DNA of 5,802 nt from a virus: positions 1 through 5,802 of IMG/VR virus record IMGVR_UViG_3300045988_019603, one strand, 5' to 3'. The notes below the pieces were generated by a model. The model was given only the letters and a program-made list of their open reading frames with translations, did no database searches and was not told the DNA's origin. Both the position numbers and the translations under genes were made by a program. Positions 1-5,802 of this stretch are shown piece after piece; position 1 is the stretch's first letter, and each line of letters begins with the position of its first letter.

Positions 1-119
1 GATGCACGCAACGGCCGAGGCAGCAGCAGAAACACTAGAACAGCTGAAACAGATGCAGCAGACCGAACAACCGAAGCAGAACGAACAGCCAAAGCAGCCG
101 AAACCGGAAGAAAAAAAGA
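1..119. repeat. Terminal redundancy, copy 1 (identical to 5684..5802); marks a circular genome
   Basis: Base-by-base comparison shows 119/119 identity with the last 119 nt of the window. Confidence 0.95.
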
Positions 120-151
120 AAGAGGTGAAGGAAAACGAACCGAAACAGTGA
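1..151 (+). CDS. VP3: Putative internal scaffolding protein (VP3-like), 3' portion of a gene that wraps the circular junction (continues from 5388..5683)
   Basis: The frame starting at nt 2 is open to TGA 149-151. Nt 1-119 are identical to 5684-5802, where the same frame is open back to ATG 5388. The joined ORF is 444 nt (148 aa) plus a stop. It ends in a charged low-complexity tail (QPKQNEQPKQPKPEEKKKEVKENEPKQ). Its size and its position directly upstream of VP1 fit gokushovirus VP3. Sequence-level resemblance is weak by eye. Confidence 0.6.
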   Translation, partial: MHATAEAAAETLEQLKQMQQTEQPKQNEQPKQPKPEEKKKEVKENEPKQ

Positions 152-176
152 GAACCATTTCGCGCAAGTGCCGCGG

Positions 177-1868
177 ATGGAACGACCGCGAAGCAGATTT
201 GACCGGAGTCACCAACTCTTAACGACCATCAACGAAGGAGACCTAGTACCCATCTACTACGATGAGGTACTTCCGGGCGATACAGCAAAAGTACACCTTA
301 ACGGCCTTATCCGCATGAGCACACCAATCTATCCTATCATGGATAACTGTTACATGGATACATATTTCTTCTTTGTTCCGTGCCGTCTGCTGTGGGAGCA
401 CTGGGAGAACATGTTCGGCGAGAACGACACCGACTACTGGGCAGAAAAAACCGAATATTCCACACCGACATGCAAAATCGGCGGAAAAAGCGGACTGAAC
501 AACGGAAGCATAGGAGACTATTTCGGGCTTCCGACCGAGGTAAAAGGAGAAATCAAAGTAAACGCGCTGCCAGCACGCGCTTACGCCATGATTTATAATG
601 AGTGGTTCAGAGATGAAAACCTAGAAGCGCCAATGATGCTAGGCTACAAAAAAACGGATGAAGCGGGAAACGATGACGACCCGGCAAACGGAAACGATAT
701 GAACGCAAACATACCGTCGGTCACCACGATAACGAATGAAGCATACATTTACGGAAAAAGGCCAGCGAAAGCGGGAAAGTTTCACGACTACTTCACATCC
801 TGTCTGCCGTCACCGTTGAAAAATGACCCTATGGAGATCAACCTGACAGGTGATGCACCAGTAGTTATGGGCACCTACAACAGCGAAACAGGCAAGGTTG
901 AACCGTATAAAATGAACACGGATATCTGGTTCAACGGCACCGGCGTAGGCGCAGGACGGGCATTCAACCGAACTACCACGATTCCGACACCGGGATTTCC
1001 GGCGCTAGAACTGGCGGGTGTAGAAACCAACGGCGCAGCAACTGACCCAGAAGGAAACAACATCATAATGGGCGATCTGTACGCCAACCTGAGCAACGTG
1101 TCCGCAATCAACATTGCGGACCTACGCATGGCGATCGCCTTGCAGCATATCTTTGAAGCAGATGCACGCAACGGCACAAGGTACAGAGAGTTCCTTTCCG
1201 GCACATGGGGCATAACATCACCGGACAGCCGGCTTCAGATTCCTGAGTACATCGGCGGGCAGCGCATTGCAATCAATGTCAATCAGGTCGTTCAGACAAG
1301 CCAGACGGACACCACGACCGGACAGGCATTGGGCAATACGGCAGCATACAGTCTGACCACATGCAGCAAGCAGATGGTAGACTATGCAGCAACCGAATAC
1401 GGCTATATCATTGGTCTGGCAGTGGTACGAGTAGAGCACAGCTATCAGCAAGGACTTGCGACAAAGTGGACACGCGGCGGGCGGTTCACATACTACGACC
1501 CGCGATTAGCAGCGCTAGGCGAACAGCCAGTATATAATCGTGAAATCTATGCACAAGGCACTCCCGAAGATGAAGAAATCTTCGGCTACCAGGAGGCTTG
1601 GGCGGATTACCGCTACAAGCCATCTTACATAACTGGAGAAATGCGGTCGAACTATAAGACCAGTTTGGACGCATGGCACTATGCAGACGATTATAACAAA
1701 CTCCCACGTCTCTCGGCAGAGTGGATTCAAGAAGGACAAGAGAACATTGACCGAACGATTGCAGTAACAAGCAACGTATCACACCAGTTCTTGTGTGACT
1801 TCTATTTCACAGAAGAATGGTATCGCGAAATGCCTATTTACAGTATTCCCGGCATCGAGAGAATCTAA
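177..1868 (+). CDS. VP1: Microviridae major capsid protein VP1 (F-protein family), 563 aa
   Basis: The N-terminus MERPRSRFDRSHQLLTTINEGDLVPIYYDEVLPGDT...FFFVPCRLLWEHWENMF matches the conserved gokushovirus VP1 signature (FD-SH, G-L-P, EVLPGD, FFVP-RL-W). The size is typical. ATG 177 is preferred over the track's in-frame GTG 168. No canonical SD lies upstream of either start. The stop is TAA 1866-1868. Confidence 0.95.
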   Translation: MERPRSRFDRSHQLLTTINEGDLVPIYYDEVLPGDTAKVHLNGLIRMSTPIYPIMDNCYMDTYFFFVPCRLLWEHWENMFGENDTDYWAEKTEYSTPTCKIGGKSGLNNGSIGDYFGLPTEVKGEIKVNALPARAYAMIYNEWFRDENLEAPMMLGYKKTDEAGNDDDPANGNDMNANIPSVTTITNEAYIYGKRPAKAGKFHDYFTSCLPSPLKNDPMEINLTGDAPVVMGTYNSETGKVEPYKMNTDIWFNGTGVGAGRAFNRTTTIPTPGFPALELAGVETNGAATDPEGNNIIMGDLYANLSNVSAINIADLRMAIALQHIFEADARNGTRYREFLSGTWGITSPDSRLQIPEYIGGQRIAINVNQVVQTSQTDTTTGQALGNTAAYSLTTCSKQMVDYAATEYGYIIGLAVVRVEHSYQQGLATKWTRGGRFTYYDPRLAALGEQPVYNREIYAQGTPEDEEIFGYQEAWADYRYKPSYITGEMRSNYKTSLDAWHYADDYNKLPRLSAEWIQEGQENIDRTIAVTSNVSHQFLCDFYFTEEWYREMPIYSIPGIERI

Positions 1869-1878
1869 GAAAGGAGGA

Positions 1879-1904
1879 AGCCCCGCAAAAGCGGGGCTAT
1901 TTTT
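1879..1904 (+). terminator. Rho-independent terminator-like hairpin after VP1, lying between the VP2 SD and the VP2 start codon
   Basis: The stem AGCCCCGC (1879-1886) pairs with GCGGGGCT (1891-1898) around loop AAAA, and ATTTTT follows. The SD AAGGAGGA (1871-1878) sits immediately 5' and ATG 1907 immediately 3'. Confidence 0.7.
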
Positions 1905-1906
1905 GA

Positions 1907-2779
1907 ATGGAAACATTATTAAAACTTTTGCCATCACTCATGAAAGGACTGAGTATATTAACAGGCATCATAACGAACAGTAACCAGAGCAGCGCCAAAA
2001 ACAGCCAAGGAACAGGCAGCGAGAGCAGCACAGGCAGCGAGACCACAACCGGCAGCGTAACAGCACCGCAGCAGATAGGAGCAACGCAAATCAGCACGCC
2101 AACAGGTATTACCACATTCGGCAACCAGAGCAGCGTAAACACCGCAAACGCACTGCAAATGATGAGCGGACTGCTGAGCAACATCGCAAATGCTGGAAGC
2201 CAAGCAAGCGCCAAGAAGTACAACAGCGCAGAAGCAGCAGCAGAAAGAGCGTTTCAGAAAGAGATGCGTGGGACGGCCTATCAGGATACCGTAAAGGACA
2301 TGATAGCAGCGGGCATCAATCCTATTCTAGCAGCAACCAACGGGGCAACAAGCGCACCATCAGGAGCGTCTGCAAGCATTGGAAGCCAACACTATAACCA
2401 GCAGAGCGCACAGGCAGCAAGCGTATCCGCAATGTACGAATACGGCAACAACACGGCAGAACTGGCAGACAAATACTTAAAACTGGCAAAACAGAGCACC
2501 AGCGCAAAACAATTTAAGAGCGCGAAAAGCTGGGAACAGGCAGCGAGCGAGCTGGCAACCTCAAGCGCAAAACAGGCACAACAGTACACCTATACAGCTA
2601 ACAAATTGGGCTCAGGCCTTGCGAAAGCAGGAGAAAAAGCCAAAGACGCAGCAAAAAAGGCTGGTAAAGCAGCCAAAGAAGGCGTTGACAAAGTGGCAGA
2701 AGATACTATCAACAAGGCAGCAAGAAGACGCAAACTAATAGATGGATTCAAATCTGGAAAAACATACACAGGAGACTAA
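1907..2779 (+). CDS. VP2: Microviridae minor capsid / DNA pilot protein VP2, 290 aa
   Basis: It contains the conserved VP2 core motif ...AERAFQKEMRGTAYQDTVKDMIAAGINPILA... (TAYQ-x5-DM-x2-AG-NP-LA). It has a hydrophobic N-terminus, a Ser/Thr/Gly/Gln-rich region and an Ala/Lys-rich C-terminus. Its position directly after VP1 is the expected one. Confidence 0.85.
   Translation: METLLKLLPSLMKGLSILTGIITNSNQSSAKNSQGTGSESSTGSETTTGSVTAPQQIGATQISTPTGITTFGNQSSVNTANALQMMSGLLSNIANAGSQASAKKYNSAEAAAERAFQKEMRGTAYQDTVKDMIAAGINPILAATNGATSAPSGASASIGSQHYNQQSAQAASVSAMYEYGNNTAELADKYLKLAKQSTSAKQFKSAKSWEQAASELATSSAKQAQQYTYTANKLGSGLAKAGEKAKDAAKKAGKAAKEGVDKVAEDTINKAARRRKLIDGFKSGKTYTGD
2012..2065 (+). repeat. Degenerate 18-nt tandem repeat x3 inside VP2 (TGSESS / TGSETT / TGSVTA)
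   Basis: The copies are ACAGGCAGCGAGAGCAGC (2012-2029), ACAGGCAGCGAGACCACA (2030-2047) and ACCGGCAGCGTAACAGCA (2048-2065). They are in frame with VP2. Confidence 0.7.
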
Positions 2780-2785
2780 GAAAGG

Positions 2786-2815
2786 AAGGGGGATGGCAAA
2801 ACATCCCCCTTTTTT
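2786..2815 (+). terminator. Rho-independent terminator after VP2
   Basis: A 10-bp stem, AAGGGGGATG (2786-2795) paired with CATCCCCCTT (2802-2811), encloses loop GCAAAA. The T-run continues to 2815. Confidence 0.75.
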
Positions 2816-2981
2816 AGTAACAATAATCCAGAAAATAGAGAATGTGGAAAACTTGAGTTTTCAACACTTTCAACAGGTTTTCAACAACAAGTTGCACAAA
2901 GAAATTCGTCATAATGACGAACTTTCAACAATTCAACAAGTTTTCAACAAAGTTTTCAACAGGCAAAAAGGCAATAAATAA
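2793..2981 (+). CDS. Doubtful 62-aa ORF across the iteron region (hypothetical; probably non-coding)
   Basis: ATG 2793 follows AAGGA (2782-2786) but lies inside the terminator stem. The ORF body is made of the TTCAACA repeats, which fall in all three codon phases. The region is also visibly T-richer than the genes. The track's longer version (2742 start) overlaps the VP2 3' end. Confidence 0.2.
   Translation: MAKHPPFLVTIIQKIENVENLSFQHFQQVFNNKLHKEIRHNDELSTIQQVFNKVFNRQKGNK
2858..2961 (+). repeat. Iteron array: seven direct copies of TTCAACA (extended (G)TTTTCAACA), three upstream and four downstream of a hairpin
   Basis: TTCAACA starts at 2860, 2869 and 2880, then at 2924, 2932, 2943 and 2955. 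Spacings are 8-12 nt. I spotted no exact TTCAACA anywhere else in the window. A degenerate copy, GAGTTTTCAAAAG, is at 3003-3015. Confidence 0.8.
2901..2926 (+). promoter_or_regulatory. Hairpin at the centre of the iteron array (candidate origin or operator stem-loop)
   Basis: The core stem is TTCGTC (2905-2910) paired with GACGAA (2916-2921), with loop ATAAT. Bulging C2922 extends it by GAAA (2901-2904) paired with TTTC (2923-2926). Confidence 0.5.
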
Positions 2982-3024
2982 ACGTAGTAACGTTAAAAAA
3001 ACGAGTTTTCAAAAGTTTCCACGC

Positions 3025-3042
3025 TACTACTACTACTACTAC
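3025..3042. repeat. Perfect (TAC)6 trinucleotide microsatellite in non-coding DNA
   Basis: TACTACTACTACTACTAC is read directly at 3025-3042. Confidence 0.95.
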
Positions 3043-3077
3043 AACAAGTTAATATATAAAGGAAGCGAGGTGTCAAA

Positions 3078-3108
3078 CGGCACAAGATAGACAAGGAAGC
3101 TTGTGCCG
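3078..3108 (+). promoter_or_regulatory. Perfect 9-bp hairpin immediately upstream of the VP4 start; SD-like AAGGAAG lies in the loop
   Basis: CGGCACAAG (3078-3086) pairs with CTTGTGCCG (3100-3108). The 13-nt loop ATAGACAAGGAAG contains AAGGAAG (3093-3099). The alternative in-frame GTG 3103 lies in the 3' arm. ATG 3118 is 10 nt downstream. Confidence 0.5.
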
Positions 3109-3117
3109 GTAACAAAA

Positions 3118-4107
3118 ATGCCATGTACAAAACCATTAGTATTTCAGATGGATACGAAAAAACCGCAACTGTGGGGAAGTCTGGAAAACCTATCAAAGCA
3201 AGGACTGCAAGCGGACATCATGGACGGAATCAAAAAAGGAAAATTCGCATTGTTACCATGCGGTAAATGCGAGTATTGCCGCAAACAGATGGCAGAACAA
3301 TGGGCAACAAGAATAGAGCTAGAAGCCAAAGAGTGGGACGATGTGATTTTTCTAACGCTAACATATGACGATGATCATATCCCATACGGCGAAATTATCA
3401 AAGGCTACAAAAGCATTCAAAGTCAGACAGTGAGCAAGCGAGACGTGCAACTATTCCTAAAACGGCTACGGAAAGCGTACAAAAAGCCAATAAAATACTT
3501 CCTAGCAGCCGAATATGGAGACAGAACAAAAAGACCACACTATCACGCGATAGTATTTGGACTGAAGCCACCCGATGCACAATGGTATAAAAACCAAAAG
3601 GGCAACAGCTACTTTAAAAGCGAGTGGTTGCAAAAAATCTGGGGGAAGGGCATGATAGACTTTTCACCAGCACAGCCGGGCAGCTACGCATATGTGGCGC
3701 AGTACGTCAACAAGAAAGCCATAGGCGCAGAGCAAGAGGCTAAATACTGGATGGAAGGTCGAGAACCAGAGTTCCGAATCATGTCGAAAGGCATCGGCGA
3801 AAAATATCTGAAAGAACATAAAGATGAAATCTTGAAAACAGATAACATCATATGCGCAGGAGGACGCTCAAAAAGGCCTCCACGCTATTTTGATAAGATT
3901 CTAGATAAAGATACCAGCCAAGACACAGAAAGCTACTTTAAAGCACATTCTGAAAAACTAAGAGAGGTTAGAGCCAAACGCAGACGCAACGCAATACAAA
4001 GTTTAATCAATATCGAACAAAGCACCAGCGTAGATTATGAAACCTATCTCAACATTCAGAAAGAAAAAAACAAGCTAAAGCAAAAGTGGCGTGAGCCGAA
4101 AGCATGA
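3118..4107 (+). CDS. VP4: Microviridae replication initiation protein VP4 (HUH rolling-circle endonuclease), 329 aa
   Basis: The N-terminus MPCTKP is typical (M-x-C-x-x-P). A Cys cluster follows (LPCGKCEYCR). Motif 1 is FLTLTYDD. The HUH motif PHYHAIVF has H-Y-H at 3538-3546. The two-tyrosine motif YVAQYVNK is at 3691-3714. An alternative start at GTG 3103 (5 codons longer, nearer the SD-like AAGGAAG) cannot be excluded. Confidence 0.93.
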   Translation: MPCTKPLVFQMDTKKPQLWGSLENLSKQGLQADIMDGIKKGKFALLPCGKCEYCRKQMAEQWATRIELEAKEWDDVIFLTLTYDDDHIPYGEIIKGYKSIQSQTVSKRDVQLFLKRLRKAYKKPIKYFLAAEYGDRTKRPHYHAIVFGLKPPDAQWYKNQKGNSYFKSEWLQKIWGKGMIDFSPAQPGSYAYVAQYVNKKAIGAEQEAKYWMEGREPEFRIMSKGIGEKYLKEHKDEILKTDNIICAGGRSKRPPRYFDKILDKDTSQDTESYFKAHSEKLREVRAKRRRNAIQSLINIEQSTSVDYETYLNIQKEKNKLKQKWREPKA

Positions 4108-4205
4108 CGCGCACAGCGCTAAAAAGGAATGGATTTAGCCGAGTTCCGCATACGCTACACACGGCAGAGCGCTAAAGCGCTTTCAAAACAAAGGAGCAAA
4201 ACCGG

Positions 4206-4239
4206 GTTACAAAAGAAAGTTACAATTTTATTACAAAAC
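4206..4239 (+). repeat. Three direct repeats of (G/A)TTACAA upstream of the peptidase promoter
   Basis: TTACAA occurs at 4207-4212, 4220-4225 and 4231-4236. Spacings are 13 and 11 nt, roughly one helical turn. Confidence 0.5.
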
Positions 4240-4261
4240 GGGAAAATCAATAAAAAACCTA

Positions 4262-4278
4262 TTGACATATGATATAAT
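4262..4278 (+). promoter_or_regulatory. Extended -10 sigma-70-type promoter (TGATATAAT) for the peptidase and downstream genes
   Basis: TG is at 4270-4271 and a consensus TATAAT at 4273-4278. A consensus TTGACA (4262-4267) is only 5 nt upstream, so it is not at functional -35 spacing. The call rests on the extended -10 alone. Confidence 0.5.
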
Positions 4279-4397
4279 AGAATCGAAAAAAAGAGAGGTA
4301 AACACCATGAAAAAGTAAAAATTCCTAGTAAGAGTATACTTCAAGAACAATACAACAGAATAGACCAAACACTTGAGTTTTAAAGAGGTTGACAAAA

Positions 4398-4790
4398 ATG
4401 CTTAAAAGCTATATCATGAACACAGACGGAAATGTACAGCTTACAAGACACTTCAAAGTAAAAGAATTTGCATGTAAAGACGGCAGTCCAGTAGTATTCA
4501 TAGACGACTACCTATACACCGTTCTGGATATCTTACGACATAAGATAGGAAAACCGGTAATCATTACCAGCGGATACAGAACACCAGAGTGGAACAAAAA
4601 ATGCAGTGGAGCAAAATACAGCTATCACATGCGCGGTATGGCAGCAGACATCCGGGCCGATGGCATGAGTGCAAAAGAGCTTGCCAACAAACTGGATGAA
4701 ATCGTCCCGGATGAATGCGGCATTATCGTATACAACAACTGGGTGCACTTTGATGTACGACCCGGGAAAAAATACAGAAAGGGGGTGTAA
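4398..4790 (+). CDS. Zinc D,D-/L,D-peptidase of the M15 (LAS / VanY-like, Peptidase_M15_3-type) family; probable cell-wall hydrolase or lysin, 130 aa
   Basis: The motif series is F-x-x-x-EF-x-C, SGYRTPEWN, S-Y-H-MRGMAAD (His77-x6-Asp84, codons 4626-4628 and 4647-4649) and WVHFD (His117, 4746-4748). This gives the H-x6-D...H zinc triad of M15/LAS enzymes. The SD AAAGAGG (4382-4388) lies 9 nt before ATG 4398. The track's TTG 4389 start abuts the SD and is unlikely. Confidence 0.85.
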   Translation: MLKSYIMNTDGNVQLTRHFKVKEFACKDGSPVVFIDDYLYTVLDILRHKIGKPVIITSGYRTPEWNKKCSGAKYSYHMRGMAADIRADGMSAKELANKLDEIVPDECGIIVYNNWVHFDVRPGKKYRKGV

Positions 4791-4792
4791 CA

Positions 4793-4867
4793 ATGAAATC
4801 ATGGAATGTACGCGACCAGACCAAAAAAACAAATTGTGAGCAAAACAGAAAAAACAGAAAGGAGTAA
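4793..4867 (+). CDS. Possible 24-aa basic peptide (MKSWNVRDQTKKTNCEQNRKNRKE) filling the gap between the peptidase and the J-like gene
   Basis: ATG 4793 lies about 6 nt after AAGGGGGT (4780-4787). The stop TAA 4865-4867 overlaps the next gene's SD. It is below the ORF-track size cutoff and no family is recognised. Confidence 0.3.
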   Translation: MKSWNVRDQTKKTNCEQNRKNRKE

Positions 4868-4871
4868 ACCA

Positions 4872-4988
4872 ATGGCACACAGAAGCGAAGCAGGTCGAGG
4901 CGACCAGAAAAAATTTACCCAGACTGCAAAGCGGGTAAAAAACATCAACGTAAGGCCGAAGGTATCACGAGGCGGTGTCCGGCTGTAA
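4872..4988 (+). CDS. Small basic DNA-binding/packaging protein, analogue of phiX174 J and gokushovirus ORF8, 38 aa
   Basis: The protein is MAHRSEAGRGDQKKFTQTAKRVKNINVRPKVSRGGVRL. It is highly basic and ends in RGG-(I/V)-RL, which I recall as typical of these small Microviridae proteins. The SD AAAGGAG (4858-4864) lies 7 nt upstream. The track's longer 4806 start has no SD. Confidence 0.65.
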   Translation: MAHRSEAGRGDQKKFTQTAKRVKNINVRPKVSRGGVRL

Positions 4989-5019
4989 ACGACACAAACC
5001 AAAGAAAGGAGGTGAATTA

Positions 5020-5136
5020 ATGGCACTAATTAAAGTCAAAGACGTAAAAGAAGCAATCGCCCTAATGATGAACATCCTTGAAAAGCTCGACGAAATCTAC
5101 CACGCGCTAAAGGATGCAAGCAAAGAAAAAGAGTAA
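5020..5136 (+). CDS. Hypothetical 38-aa protein (MALIKVKDVKEAIALMMNILEKLDEIYHALKDASKEKE), predicted amphipathic helix
   Basis: A near-perfect SD, AAAGGAGGTG (5005-5014), lies 5 nt before ATG 5020. The stop TAA 5134-5136 overlaps the VP5 SD, so packing is tight. It is absent from the ORF track (under 60 aa) and no family is recognised. Confidence 0.55.
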   Translation: MALIKVKDVKEAIALMMNILEKLDEIYHALKDASKEKE

Positions 5137-5146
5137 AGGAGAAAAC

Positions 5147-5401
5147 ATGAAACTGAAATTCTACTCATTCCACGATGCATTGACCAACGGCTATTCACAG
5201 CCATTTCTGCAGAACAACAGAGCACAGGCGGTCCGGACGGCACGATGGAAAGCCAACGAAAGCAAACCGAGTGAAATCGAAGATATTTCGCTCGTAGAGT
5301 TAGGCGAGTTCGACACTGAAACGGGCTACATGAGCGAAGCAATGCCTGAACACATCGCACGGCTCATCGACCTGAAGGAGACGACCAATGTTAAATCCTG
5401 A
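5147..5401 (+). CDS. VP5: Gokushovirus VP5-like non-structural protein (proposed phiX174 protein C analogue), 84 aa
   Basis: MKLKFYSFHDALTNGYSQPFLQNNRAQAVRTA....DISLVELGEFDTETGYM matches the VP5 pattern I recall (MK-x-Y-x-x-D-x-x-x-x-x-F-x-x-PF...A-x-R-F...D-x-x-L-x-x-LG-x-FD-x-x-TG). The SD AAGGAG (5136-5141) lies 5 nt before ATG 5147. The track's 5114 start lies inside the preceding small gene and has no SD. Confidence 0.75.
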   Translation: MKLKFYSFHDALTNGYSQPFLQNNRAQAVRTARWKANESKPSEIEDISLVELGEFDTETGYMSEAMPEHIARLIDLKETTNVKS

Positions 5402-5802
5402 AGCACTGGTAAGGTACTACGGTCTGCCGACCGAGAGAGTAACAAACAATCCGGGCAGCAAAACCACACCAACGTGGAAAGCAGTCAAACGACCGAACGG
5501 CACTACAGACTATATCGAGCAGCCGGACGAAAACACATACGAAAAAATCCAGCGAGCCGGCGAGGGCTACGACCTTGCAAGCGCAATCGCAAGACTGGAA
5601 GCAGGGGATACCAGCATCAAAGCAAAGAGCATGGTATACACCGAAGGAACTAACCTTGAAAATCTGCCGAAGGATATCATGACGATGCACGCAACGGCCG
5701 AGGCAGCAGCAGAAACACTAGAACAGCTGAAACAGATGCAGCAGACCGAACAACCGAAGCAGAACGAACAGCCAAAGCAGCCGAAACCGGAAGAAAAAAA
5801 GA
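5388..5802 (+). CDS. VP3: Putative internal scaffolding protein (VP3-like), 5' portion; runs off the window end and continues at nt 1..151 via the terminal overlap
   Basis: ATG 5388 lies 7 nt after AAGGAG (5375-5380) and overlaps the VP5 3' end by 14 nt. I translated the frame by hand (MLNPEALVRYYGLPTERVTNNPGSK...) and it stays open to the window end. It is absent from the ORF track because no stop occurs before nt 5802. Confidence 0.6.
   Translation, partial: MLNPEALVRYYGLPTERVTNNPGSKTTPTWKAVKRPNGTTDYIEQPDENTYEKIQRAGEGYDLASAIARLEAGDTSIKAKSMVYTEGTNLENLPKDIMTMHATAEAAAETLEQLKQMQQTEQPKQNEQPKQPKPEEKK
5684..5802. repeat. Terminal redundancy, copy 2 (identical to 1..119)
   Basis: 119/119 identity with the window start. 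Confidence 0.95.

Follow-up and report, generated by a model that had tools for sequence, protein, structure and literature searches.

Peptidases of the M15_3 family were reported in 11 human-associated Microviridae, 5 of them Gokushovirinae, by Roux et al. (2012), who described the genes as horizontally acquired, noted holins beside the bacterial and prophage homologs, and suggested that the enzymes serve as endolysins (PMC3394797). Kirchberger et al. (2022) described peptidases that were 74% identical, within a 700-nucleotide (nt) block, in viruses whose VP1 proteins were 21% identical (PMC9239249). Here, we analyzed a gene of this kind in a 5,802-nt stretch of viral DNA (IMG/VR record IMGVR_UViG_3300045988_019603, positions 1 to 5,802), which is referred to below as the window. 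The gene (positions 4398 to 4790, + strand) encodes a predicted peptidase of 130 amino acids (aa) and differs in nothing essential from the M15_3 genes of human-gut Gokushovirinae and Alpavirinae (i.e., same family, virus group, and habitat). GenBank relatives also annotate it as a peptidase (KX513876 as "peptidase M15" and the MG945xxx records). That microviruses carry this gene, that it was acquired horizontally, and that they exchange it were already known from the 2012 and 2022 studies. An earlier reading of the window (made from the letters alone and referred to here as the sequence-only reading) had rightly cautioned that presence alone might not be new. The window is therefore a further example of a kind first reported in 2012 and no discovery. 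The present analysis contributes a count, taken across the clade, of open reading frames (ORFs) with membrane segments and the status of the small ORFs that neighbor the peptidase gene.

Comparable hydrolases occur elsewhere among microviruses. The Rhodobacter microvirus Ebor encodes Gp7, for which peptidoglycan hydrolase activity was verified and traces were detected in virions, as well as a predicted 45-aa membrane protein, Gp1 (PMC11980548). An M15 peptidase, read as a putative endolysin, was found in five of six isolates of Occultatumvirinae roseophages (PMC11499846); vB_RpoMi-Mini has four predicted genes, one of which encodes an M15 peptidase, and M15 peptidases have been described in microvirus isolates of marine and soil origin. 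Ebor, vB_RpoMi-Mini, and the roseophages resemble the window in having an accessory hydrolase presumed to serve lysis, but they belong to other microvirus families and have alphaproteobacterial hosts. Moreover, the Gp1 membrane protein of Ebor has no counterpart in the lineage studied here.

Gokushoviruses are among the most abundant gut phages, and the peptidase is the only recognizable lysis-type gene in a very common gokushovirus lineage of the human and animal gut. In phiX174, lysis depends on E, an MraY-inhibiting membrane protein whose gene is overprinted on another gene. Both E and the peptidase represent small-phage lysis without a holin-endolysin pair; unlike E, the product considered here is a predicted soluble hydrolase with an ORF of its own.

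The peptidase and its relatives

The predicted protein matched Pfam family Peptidase_M15_3 (PF08291) along the whole profile (positions 2 to 108 of 108; E = 1.1e-21; 77.5 bits versus a cutoff of 23.2) and the PHROG 894 "endolysin" family (4e-43). The characteristic motifs were located at residues 58 to 61 (SGYR, corresponding to the SxxR substrate-binding motif), 77 to 84 (H77-x6-D84), 117 (H117), and 119 (D119). Two lesser matches were obtained, to PF05951 (DUF882/Peptidase_M15_2; 30.8 bits versus a cutoff of 27) and to NCBIfam NF053624 (MepK; E = 6.5e-11; 42.4 bits, below the equivalog cutoff of 185). The similarity to the L,D-endopeptidase MepK (YcbK) is limited to this secondary profile match; the peptidase is no MepK ortholog and has no export signal.

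Conservation was assessed in 86 related genomes, which comprised the best 80 of 235 IMG/VR matches to the peptidase, 2 GenBank genomes, and 4 genomes that do not encode it. The IMG/VR and GenBank relatives provided 82 peptidase-bearing loci. In the 82 microvirus homologs, S58, G59, Y60, R61, H77, D84, and D119 were invariant, and H117 was present in 81. H77, D84, and H117 were also invariant when 25 homologs of the Faecalibacterium-phage type were added, and we propose these three residues as the metal ligands. The median pairwise ratio of nonsynonymous to synonymous substitution rates (dN/dS) was 0.15, indicating that the peptidase is under purifying selection. The protein is a single domain with a cationic C-terminal tail. 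Some relatives have longer gene calls (165 to 216 aa), in which the added sequence is hydrophilic only. Clustering at 90% identity gave 1,481 protein clusters of this peptidase, many of them on contigs of 5 to 6 kb.

The AlphaFold2 model of the peptidase had a predicted local distance difference test (pLDDT) score of 87.6 and a predicted template modeling (pTM) score of 0.83. A sequence search of the PDB ranked the zinc D-Ala-D-Ala peptidase of Streptomyces albus G (1LBU) first (E = 2.8e-5), with the H-x6-D motif region aligned. In a Foldseek search against the PDB, the top matches of the model were 1LBU, VanY, VanXYc, and Ply500, and further matches included LysB4, LysECD7, ChiX, and Hedgehog N-domains. 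Viral M15A peptidases in BFVD matched the model with template modeling scores (TM-scores) of up to 0.90. On the evidence of profiles and model, the predicted product of positions 4398 to 4790 is confirmed as a MEROPS M15A/Peptidase_M15_3 zinc peptidase of the LAS fold (i.e., the Hedgehog/DD-peptidase fold). The family assignment made in the sequence-only reading, which had named the H77-x6-D84 and H117 triad and the SGYR motif, was borne out, and the H/D/H residues, whose loss in close homologs it had named as a refutation, persist in them.

By sequence and by fold, 1LBU, VanY, and VanXYc are the best matches among solved structures. However, they are larger than the peptidase and carry extra domains or membrane anchors, and with identities of 15 to 29% and TM-scores of 0.42 to 0.55, their substrate specificity is not transferable to it.

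We also observed that a loop of 7 residues (PPGLGRA), which stands just before the WVH motif in Faecalibacterium-phage endolysins, is missing from all microvirus peptidases of the clade. The missing loop falls at residues 112 and 113 (approximately positions 4731 to 4736 of the window).

Membrane segments and access to the wall

The start codon of the peptidase gene is preceded by a ribosome-binding site, AAAGAGG (4383 to 4389), that ends 8 nt before it. Given that the first possible in-frame start codon is TTG at 4389, the protein could be extended at its N terminus by at most 3 aa. The highest 19-residue Kyte-Doolittle mean in the protein was 0.83, and residues 1 to 25 averaged -0.36. With this hydrophilic N terminus and so short a possible extension, neither a Sec-type signal nor a signal-anchor-release (SAR) sequence was found, in agreement with the earlier view that the protein has no signal or anchor.

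We then scanned + strand ORFs of at least 25 aa for 19-residue Kyte-Doolittle means of 1.6 or higher. None of the ORFs in the window reached this value. When the stop-to-stop frames of the + strand were examined at a threshold of 1.4, two stretches were detected, namely, the N terminus of the pilot protein VP2 (1.55) and an out-of-frame stretch at 347 to 403. The latter, which is inside VP1, was rejected as a membrane ORF because it precedes any start in its frame and because the ORF that begins with GTG at 380 is basic and of a nonmembrane type. The statement in the sequence-only reading that no + strand membrane ORF exists apart from the VP2 N terminus accordingly holds at both thresholds.

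The same scan detected no conserved holin-like ORF in the 86 related genomes. Stray, nonconserved matches were present in five of them: three were isolated ORFs, one was a VP2 N terminus, and one came from a chimeric contig of 10.9 kb. As positive controls, the small ORFs beside the endolysin genes of Faecalibacterium phages FP_oengus and FP_Toutatis and of Salmonella phage SP6 scored 2.57 to 2.62. Of 26 loci in tailed phages or bacteria, 21 had an ORF with a membrane segment within 900 nt of the homolog.

Two antisense ORFs were considered as hidden holins and discarded. Stop codons disrupt the first (4799 to 5026; 75 aa; hydrophobicity, 2.68) in 13 of 31 relatives and the second (4533 to 4880; 115 aa) in most of the 82 relatives. 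The coding strand of the window has an asymmetric base composition (A, 37%; T, 17%), and a strand that is rich in A and poor in T gives rise to long hydrophobic pseudo-ORFs in antisense, such as those at 1897 to 2223 and 4799 to 5026.

The arrangement was compared with those of established lysis systems. A canonical holin-endolysin cassette is represented in the window by its muralytic enzyme, which is without a signal, but not by a holin. No ORF resembling a membrane protein of the phiX174 E type was found in any + strand frame, and no hydrolase domain was found fused to VP1, VP2, or VP3, the peptidase being free-standing. A literature search returned no paper that characterized an export route for microvirus peptidases lacking a holin.

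The endolysins of FP_oengus, FP_Toutatis, and SP6 (gp46) resemble the peptidase closely. They share 39 to 44% identity with it, are colinear with it over lengths of 118 to 138 aa, have no signal, and possess the same H/D/H residues. They differ in that each endolysin gene is followed, 10 to 94 nt downstream, by a small ORF whose product has a strong transmembrane segment and, in FP_oengus and SP6, carries a holin annotation, whereas microvirus genomes have none. Judged by sequence and gene context, these tailed-phage homologs of the peptidase are holin-dependent endolysins. Tailed phages thus pair this type of enzyme with a holin, and the 87 gokushovirus genomes never do. How the wall is reached without a holin is a genuine puzzle, one that is general to peptidase-bearing microviruses and not specific to the window.

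Relatives without the gene are informative in this respect. No peptidase was detected by tblastn in KT264799, MG945157, KT264798, or MG945423 (L129 to L132), and its absence from these verified relatives marks it as an accessory gene. Up to 9 of 31 GenBank records may be without the peptidase, and these four are the verified cases. The peptidase-less sisters are also devoid of membrane ORFs, which indicates that release in this lineage has a basic mechanism independent of the peptidase and that the enzyme probably accelerates or completes wall breakdown and is not the trigger of lysis.

We consider it probable that the peptidase is an accessory enzyme of the endolysin type, which reaches the wall through a lesion made by something other than a holin and completes wall breakdown without initiating it. 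The protein would be synthesized in the cytoplasm in soluble form and would act on the sacculus late in infection, cleaving the peptide part of peptidoglycan. In place of a canonical holin, a core phage function or a host function would damage the membrane or make it leak and so give access, and the enzyme would then speed or complete the breakdown of the wall after this primary lesion.

Several considerations weigh against this proposal. The activity, substrate, and timing of the peptidase are predictions, and those of its close homologs are predictions likewise. The access step is purely inferred, with no candidate membrane-lesion factor identified. Because the sister group of the microvirus clade is not resolved in the peptidase tree, the type of host envelope cannot be deduced from it. 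Finally, the solved structures nearest to the peptidase are those of DD-carboxypeptidases and pentapeptidases; as soluble precursors are the substrates of some of these enzymes, the substrate of the peptidase could be cytoplasmic.

An alternative follows from the last point. The peptidase could remain in the cytoplasm and hydrolyze the D-Ala-D-Ala end of cell wall precursors, whether soluble or lipid linked (D-Ala-D-Ala, UDP-MurNAc-pentapeptide, and inward-facing lipid II); transpeptidation would be starved and growing cells would burst with no holin required, which would make the enzyme a catalytic analog of phiX174 E. VanXYc, a dipeptidase/pentapeptidase, acts on cytoplasmic precursors. It is one of the best PDB matches, together with the DD-peptidase of S. 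albus G (1LBU) and the pentapeptidase VanY; furthermore, one homolog is named "D-Ala-D-Ala carboxypeptidase family metallohydrolase," and no export device is conserved across the 87 genomes. Nevertheless, the TM-scores for VanY and VanXY were only 0.42 to 0.49, and the PDB matches also include the endolysins Ply500, LysB4, and LysECD7. The colinear tailed-phage homologs of the same size adjoin holins, which suggests that the wall is attacked from outside the membrane, and the relatives without a peptidase would still need another mechanism of release. We therefore regard precursor hydrolysis as unlikely. It is somewhat less likely again that the peptidase constitutes a catalytic "protein antibiotic," clipping D-Ala-D-Ala from precursors until wall synthesis fails, and hence a new, enzymatic form of single-gene lysis. 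If true, this would account for the whole lineage doing without a holin, as might other microviruses that carry M15 peptidases.

Some lysins of phages of Gram-positive bacteria, such as Svl of pneumococcal phage SV1, are exported without a signal and then wait at the wall. A host route of this sort, with no recognizable signal (e.g., linked to wall teichoic acid), could also export the peptidase, which would then be held until the membrane potential collapses. Such a route would account for finding neither signal nor holin, and it is compatible with the best cellular and prophage homologs being mostly from Clostridia, which would fit a host of the Gram-positive type. We give it little weight, since it is an analogy only and the peptidase has no cell-wall-binding domain.

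A role in entry appears just as improbable. A virion-carried peptidase might digest peptidoglycan locally so that the pilot protein could deliver the DNA, for example, through a thick wall. M15A domains do occur in tail-associated lysins (Gp5-like proteins of 500 to 1,200 aa), and the peptidoglycan hydrolase of Ebor was present in virions in trace amounts (PMC11980548). The peptidase gene is, however, a free-standing ORF that is unfused to VP1, VP2, or VP3; among tailed phages, its closest relatives are endolysins encoded in lysis cassettes; and the peptidase-less sister phages presumably still infect their hosts.

Small genes between VP4 and VP5

The ends of the window consist of an exact 119-nt repeat (1 to 119 = 5684 to 5802), indicating that the window is an assembled circular gokushovirus genome with a unique length of 5,683 nt. 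Its nearest GenBank records are human-gut gokushoviruses (MT121961, 87% nucleotide identity over 90% of the genome; KX513876, 90% identity over 69%). Every recognizable gene is on the + strand, and the features are as follows.

168 to 1868, + strand: VP1 (Pfam Phage_F, E = 1.8e-147)
1907 to 2779, + strand: VP2 pilot protein (PHROG pilot-protein families, including phrog_18604)
1907 to 1975, + strand: hydrophobic N-terminal segment of VP2 (19-residue Kyte-Doolittle mean, 1.55)
3103 to 4107, + strand: VP4 replication initiator, the left boundary of the accessory region (Pfam REP_ORF2-G2P, 1.6e-20; phrog_942, 1e-108)
4108 to 4397, + strand: AT-rich leader (GC, 0.355), part of the exchanged module
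4398 to 4790, + strand: peptidase, 130 aa (Pfam Peptidase_M15_3)
4793 to 4867, + strand: remnant ORF of 24 codons, truncated relative to a gene of 73 to 75 aa in relatives
4872 to 4988, + strand: VP8/J-like basic protein, 38 aa (phrog_10695, 5e-5)
5020 to 5136, + strand: protein of 38 aa with a predicted amphipathic helix, a core gene of the lineage (by conservation; no family match)
5147 to 5401, + strand: VP5, 84 aa, which opens the right-hand core block VP5-VP3-VP1 (Pfam Phage_ORF5, 1.2e-13; phrog_1670)
5388 across the junction to 151, + strand: VP3, 148 aa (translated through the junction)

The order in the window is thus VP4, leader, peptidase, remnant ORF, VP8-like gene, 38-aa ORF, and VP5. 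The sequence-only reading had placed the peptidase between VP4 and VP5. The gene does lie within this interval, but three ORFs intervene before VP5, one of which (4872 to 4988) had been overlooked.

The same reading had put forward the tiny ORFs at 4793 to 4867 and 5020 to 5136 as the obvious partners of the peptidase, and neither proved suitable. The first approximately 11 residues encoded at 4793 to 4867 match a gene of 71 to 75 aa that is of full length in at least 38 relatives (e.g., L099, 1466 to 1690), where it encodes a conserved helical protein (M..KSWNVRDQTKEALEELL...RREYNNGTTS). In the relatives that share backbone A, including the window, the gene is cut to 16 to 26 aa and its tails differ. 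The ORF was rejected as a lysis partner because it is a decayed remnant of this 73- to 75-aa gene. A similar protein of 68 aa is encoded upstream of the 38-aa gene in the peptidase-less relatives.

The protein encoded at 4872 to 4988 has a net charge of +9 over 38 aa and a dN/dS of 0.16. Homologs were present in all 82 loci and were directly upstream of VP5 in the genomes inspected. By its sequence characters, it is of the VP8/J-like DNA-binding type and no lysis partner.

Homologs of the other 38-aa protein (5020 to 5136) were found at all 82 peptidase-bearing loci and, counting the peptidase-less relatives, in each of the 86 related genomes. The four verified peptidase-less relatives keep this gene at an unchanged position, ahead of the VP8-like gene, VP5, and VP3. 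Its retention in these genomes indicates a core gene and not a partner gained with the peptidase, and it was rejected as a peptidase-specific partner on this ground.

The 38-aa protein could still be a core lysis factor that perturbs the membrane without a transmembrane segment, lets the peptidase through, and forms a two-gene cassette with it. Its presence with and without the peptidase is what would be expected of a core release factor. The gene is under strong purifying selection (dN/dS, 0.08), it starts approximately 10 nt or less from the peptidase stop codon in 48 of the 82 loci, and the predicted amphipathic helix (hydrophobic moment, 0.53; mean hydrophobicity, 0.16) is comparable to that of magainin. 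On the other hand, the protein lacks any hydrophobic stretch and has a net charge of -1, a coiled coil would fit its heptad-like pattern equally well, and profile searches matched it to no known family. Two other ORFs separate it from the peptidase gene in the window, and the adjacency seen elsewhere may reflect an insertion hotspot. We consider this role quite unlikely and continue to favor an accessory peptidase that acts after a lesion of other origin.

The exchanged module and its leader

The peptidase and the genome backbone have different patterns of similarity. In L049 and L050, the peptidase is 92% identical to that of the window, with VP1 only approximately 40% and VP4 39% identical; in L001, L114, and L122, VP4 is 94% identical and the peptidase only 69 to 72% identical. 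Such pairs indicate that peptidase identity is uncoupled from backbone identity. DNA similarity to the distant backbones was confined to a few blocks and was highest in the leader (4107 to 4360, 88 to 91%) and the peptidase gene (4385 to 4795, 90 to 92%), with sharp boundaries at 4107 (after the VP4 stop codon) and 4795 (after the peptidase stop codon). Weaker islands of DNA similarity corresponded to the 38-aa gene, the VP1/VP2 junction, and, in inverted orientation, the element at 2859 to 3057. These alignments indicate that a module of approximately 690 nt, consisting of the leader and the peptidase ORF, is exchanged between distant gokushovirus backbones. The module occupies variable ground that is bounded by VP4 on one side and, on the other, by a conserved block (38-aa gene, VP8-like gene, VP5, VP3, and VP1). 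In the peptidase-less genomes, the interval from VP4 to the 38-aa gene contains other small accessory ORFs, which identifies this interval as an accessory-gene hotspot.

The GC content of the peptidase gene (0.435) and its GC content at third codon positions (GC3, 0.48) are within the range of the other genes, and the composition has no signature of recent transfer. In a neighbor-joining tree, a long branch led to a single clade of microvirus peptidases (99 of 100 bootstraps), and the support for its sister group was 25 or less. Taken together, the tree and the composition show the acquisition to be old and do not point to a donor. The view that the module is a horizontally acquired cassette therefore stood as far as a mobile block of approximately 690 nt is concerned; a recent acquisition did not fit a compositionally inconspicuous gene in an old, monophyletic clade, and the donor lineage that a phylogeny had been expected to reveal did not emerge.

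The best cellular and prophage homologs were mostly from Clostridia, with cellular identities of 36 to 47%, and the best tailed-phage matches were Faecalibacterium phages and SP6-like phages. A search for the host through bins of metagenome-assembled genomes covered 46 bacterial-genome loci with a gene for a homolog, and microvirus VP1, VP2, or VP4 was absent from all of them. A 5.4-kb contig with a FP_oengus-like peptidase (P0179) was considered as a microvirus and rejected as a tailed-phage fragment.

The leader contains an extended -10-like sequence, TGATATAAT (4270 to 4278). The TGnTATAAT pattern occurs twice in the window (0.17 expected), and it is found within 320 nt upstream of the peptidase gene in 27 of 82 relatives. 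A dedicated promoter for the peptidase, as had been claimed earlier, is plausible from this motif (TGATATAAT). The sole full sigma-70-like match (4389 to 4417; 11 of 12 positions) combines TTGACA, a 17-nt spacer, and TATCAT (4412 to 4417). It straddles the start codon, such that transcription from it would begin within the ORF. The number of sigma-70 sites in the window (8) was not in excess of that in shuffled sequences (6.0 ± 2.5).

The leader is probably conserved as noncoding DNA, judging from the comparison of relatives. It includes a 47-codon ORF (4129 to 4272) that some relatives join in frame to the peptidase, which yields the gene calls of 165 to 216 aa, and that is frame-shifted in others. 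A scan of the window against Rfam gave no match at E values of up to 1, and the predicted folding of the leader showed no excess over shuffled sequence (z = -0.95). The spacer between the ribosome-binding site and the ATG, TTGACAAAA (4389 to 4397; consensus, TTGAC(A/G)AAA), was kept in most of the 82 loci and was conserved even at approximately 70% peptidase identity.

Two regions outside the module were also recorded. At the VP1/VP2 junction, a strong terminator-like hairpin, AGCCCCGCAAAAGCGGGGCT, is followed by a T-run (1879 to 1898), and the surrounding region (1830 to 1919) retains 74 to 76% DNA identity between backbones with approximately 40% VP1 identity. The VP2-VP4 intergenic region contains a noncoding element of approximately 200 nt (2859 to 3057) that is present, inverted and with 77 to 78% identity, in distant gokushovirus backbones, where its counterpart sits just upstream of the peptidase leader. 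The element includes two copies of a 34-nt direct repeat, 148 nt apart, and two copies of TTCAACAGGTTTTCAACAA, which makes it a possible origin or site of recombination.

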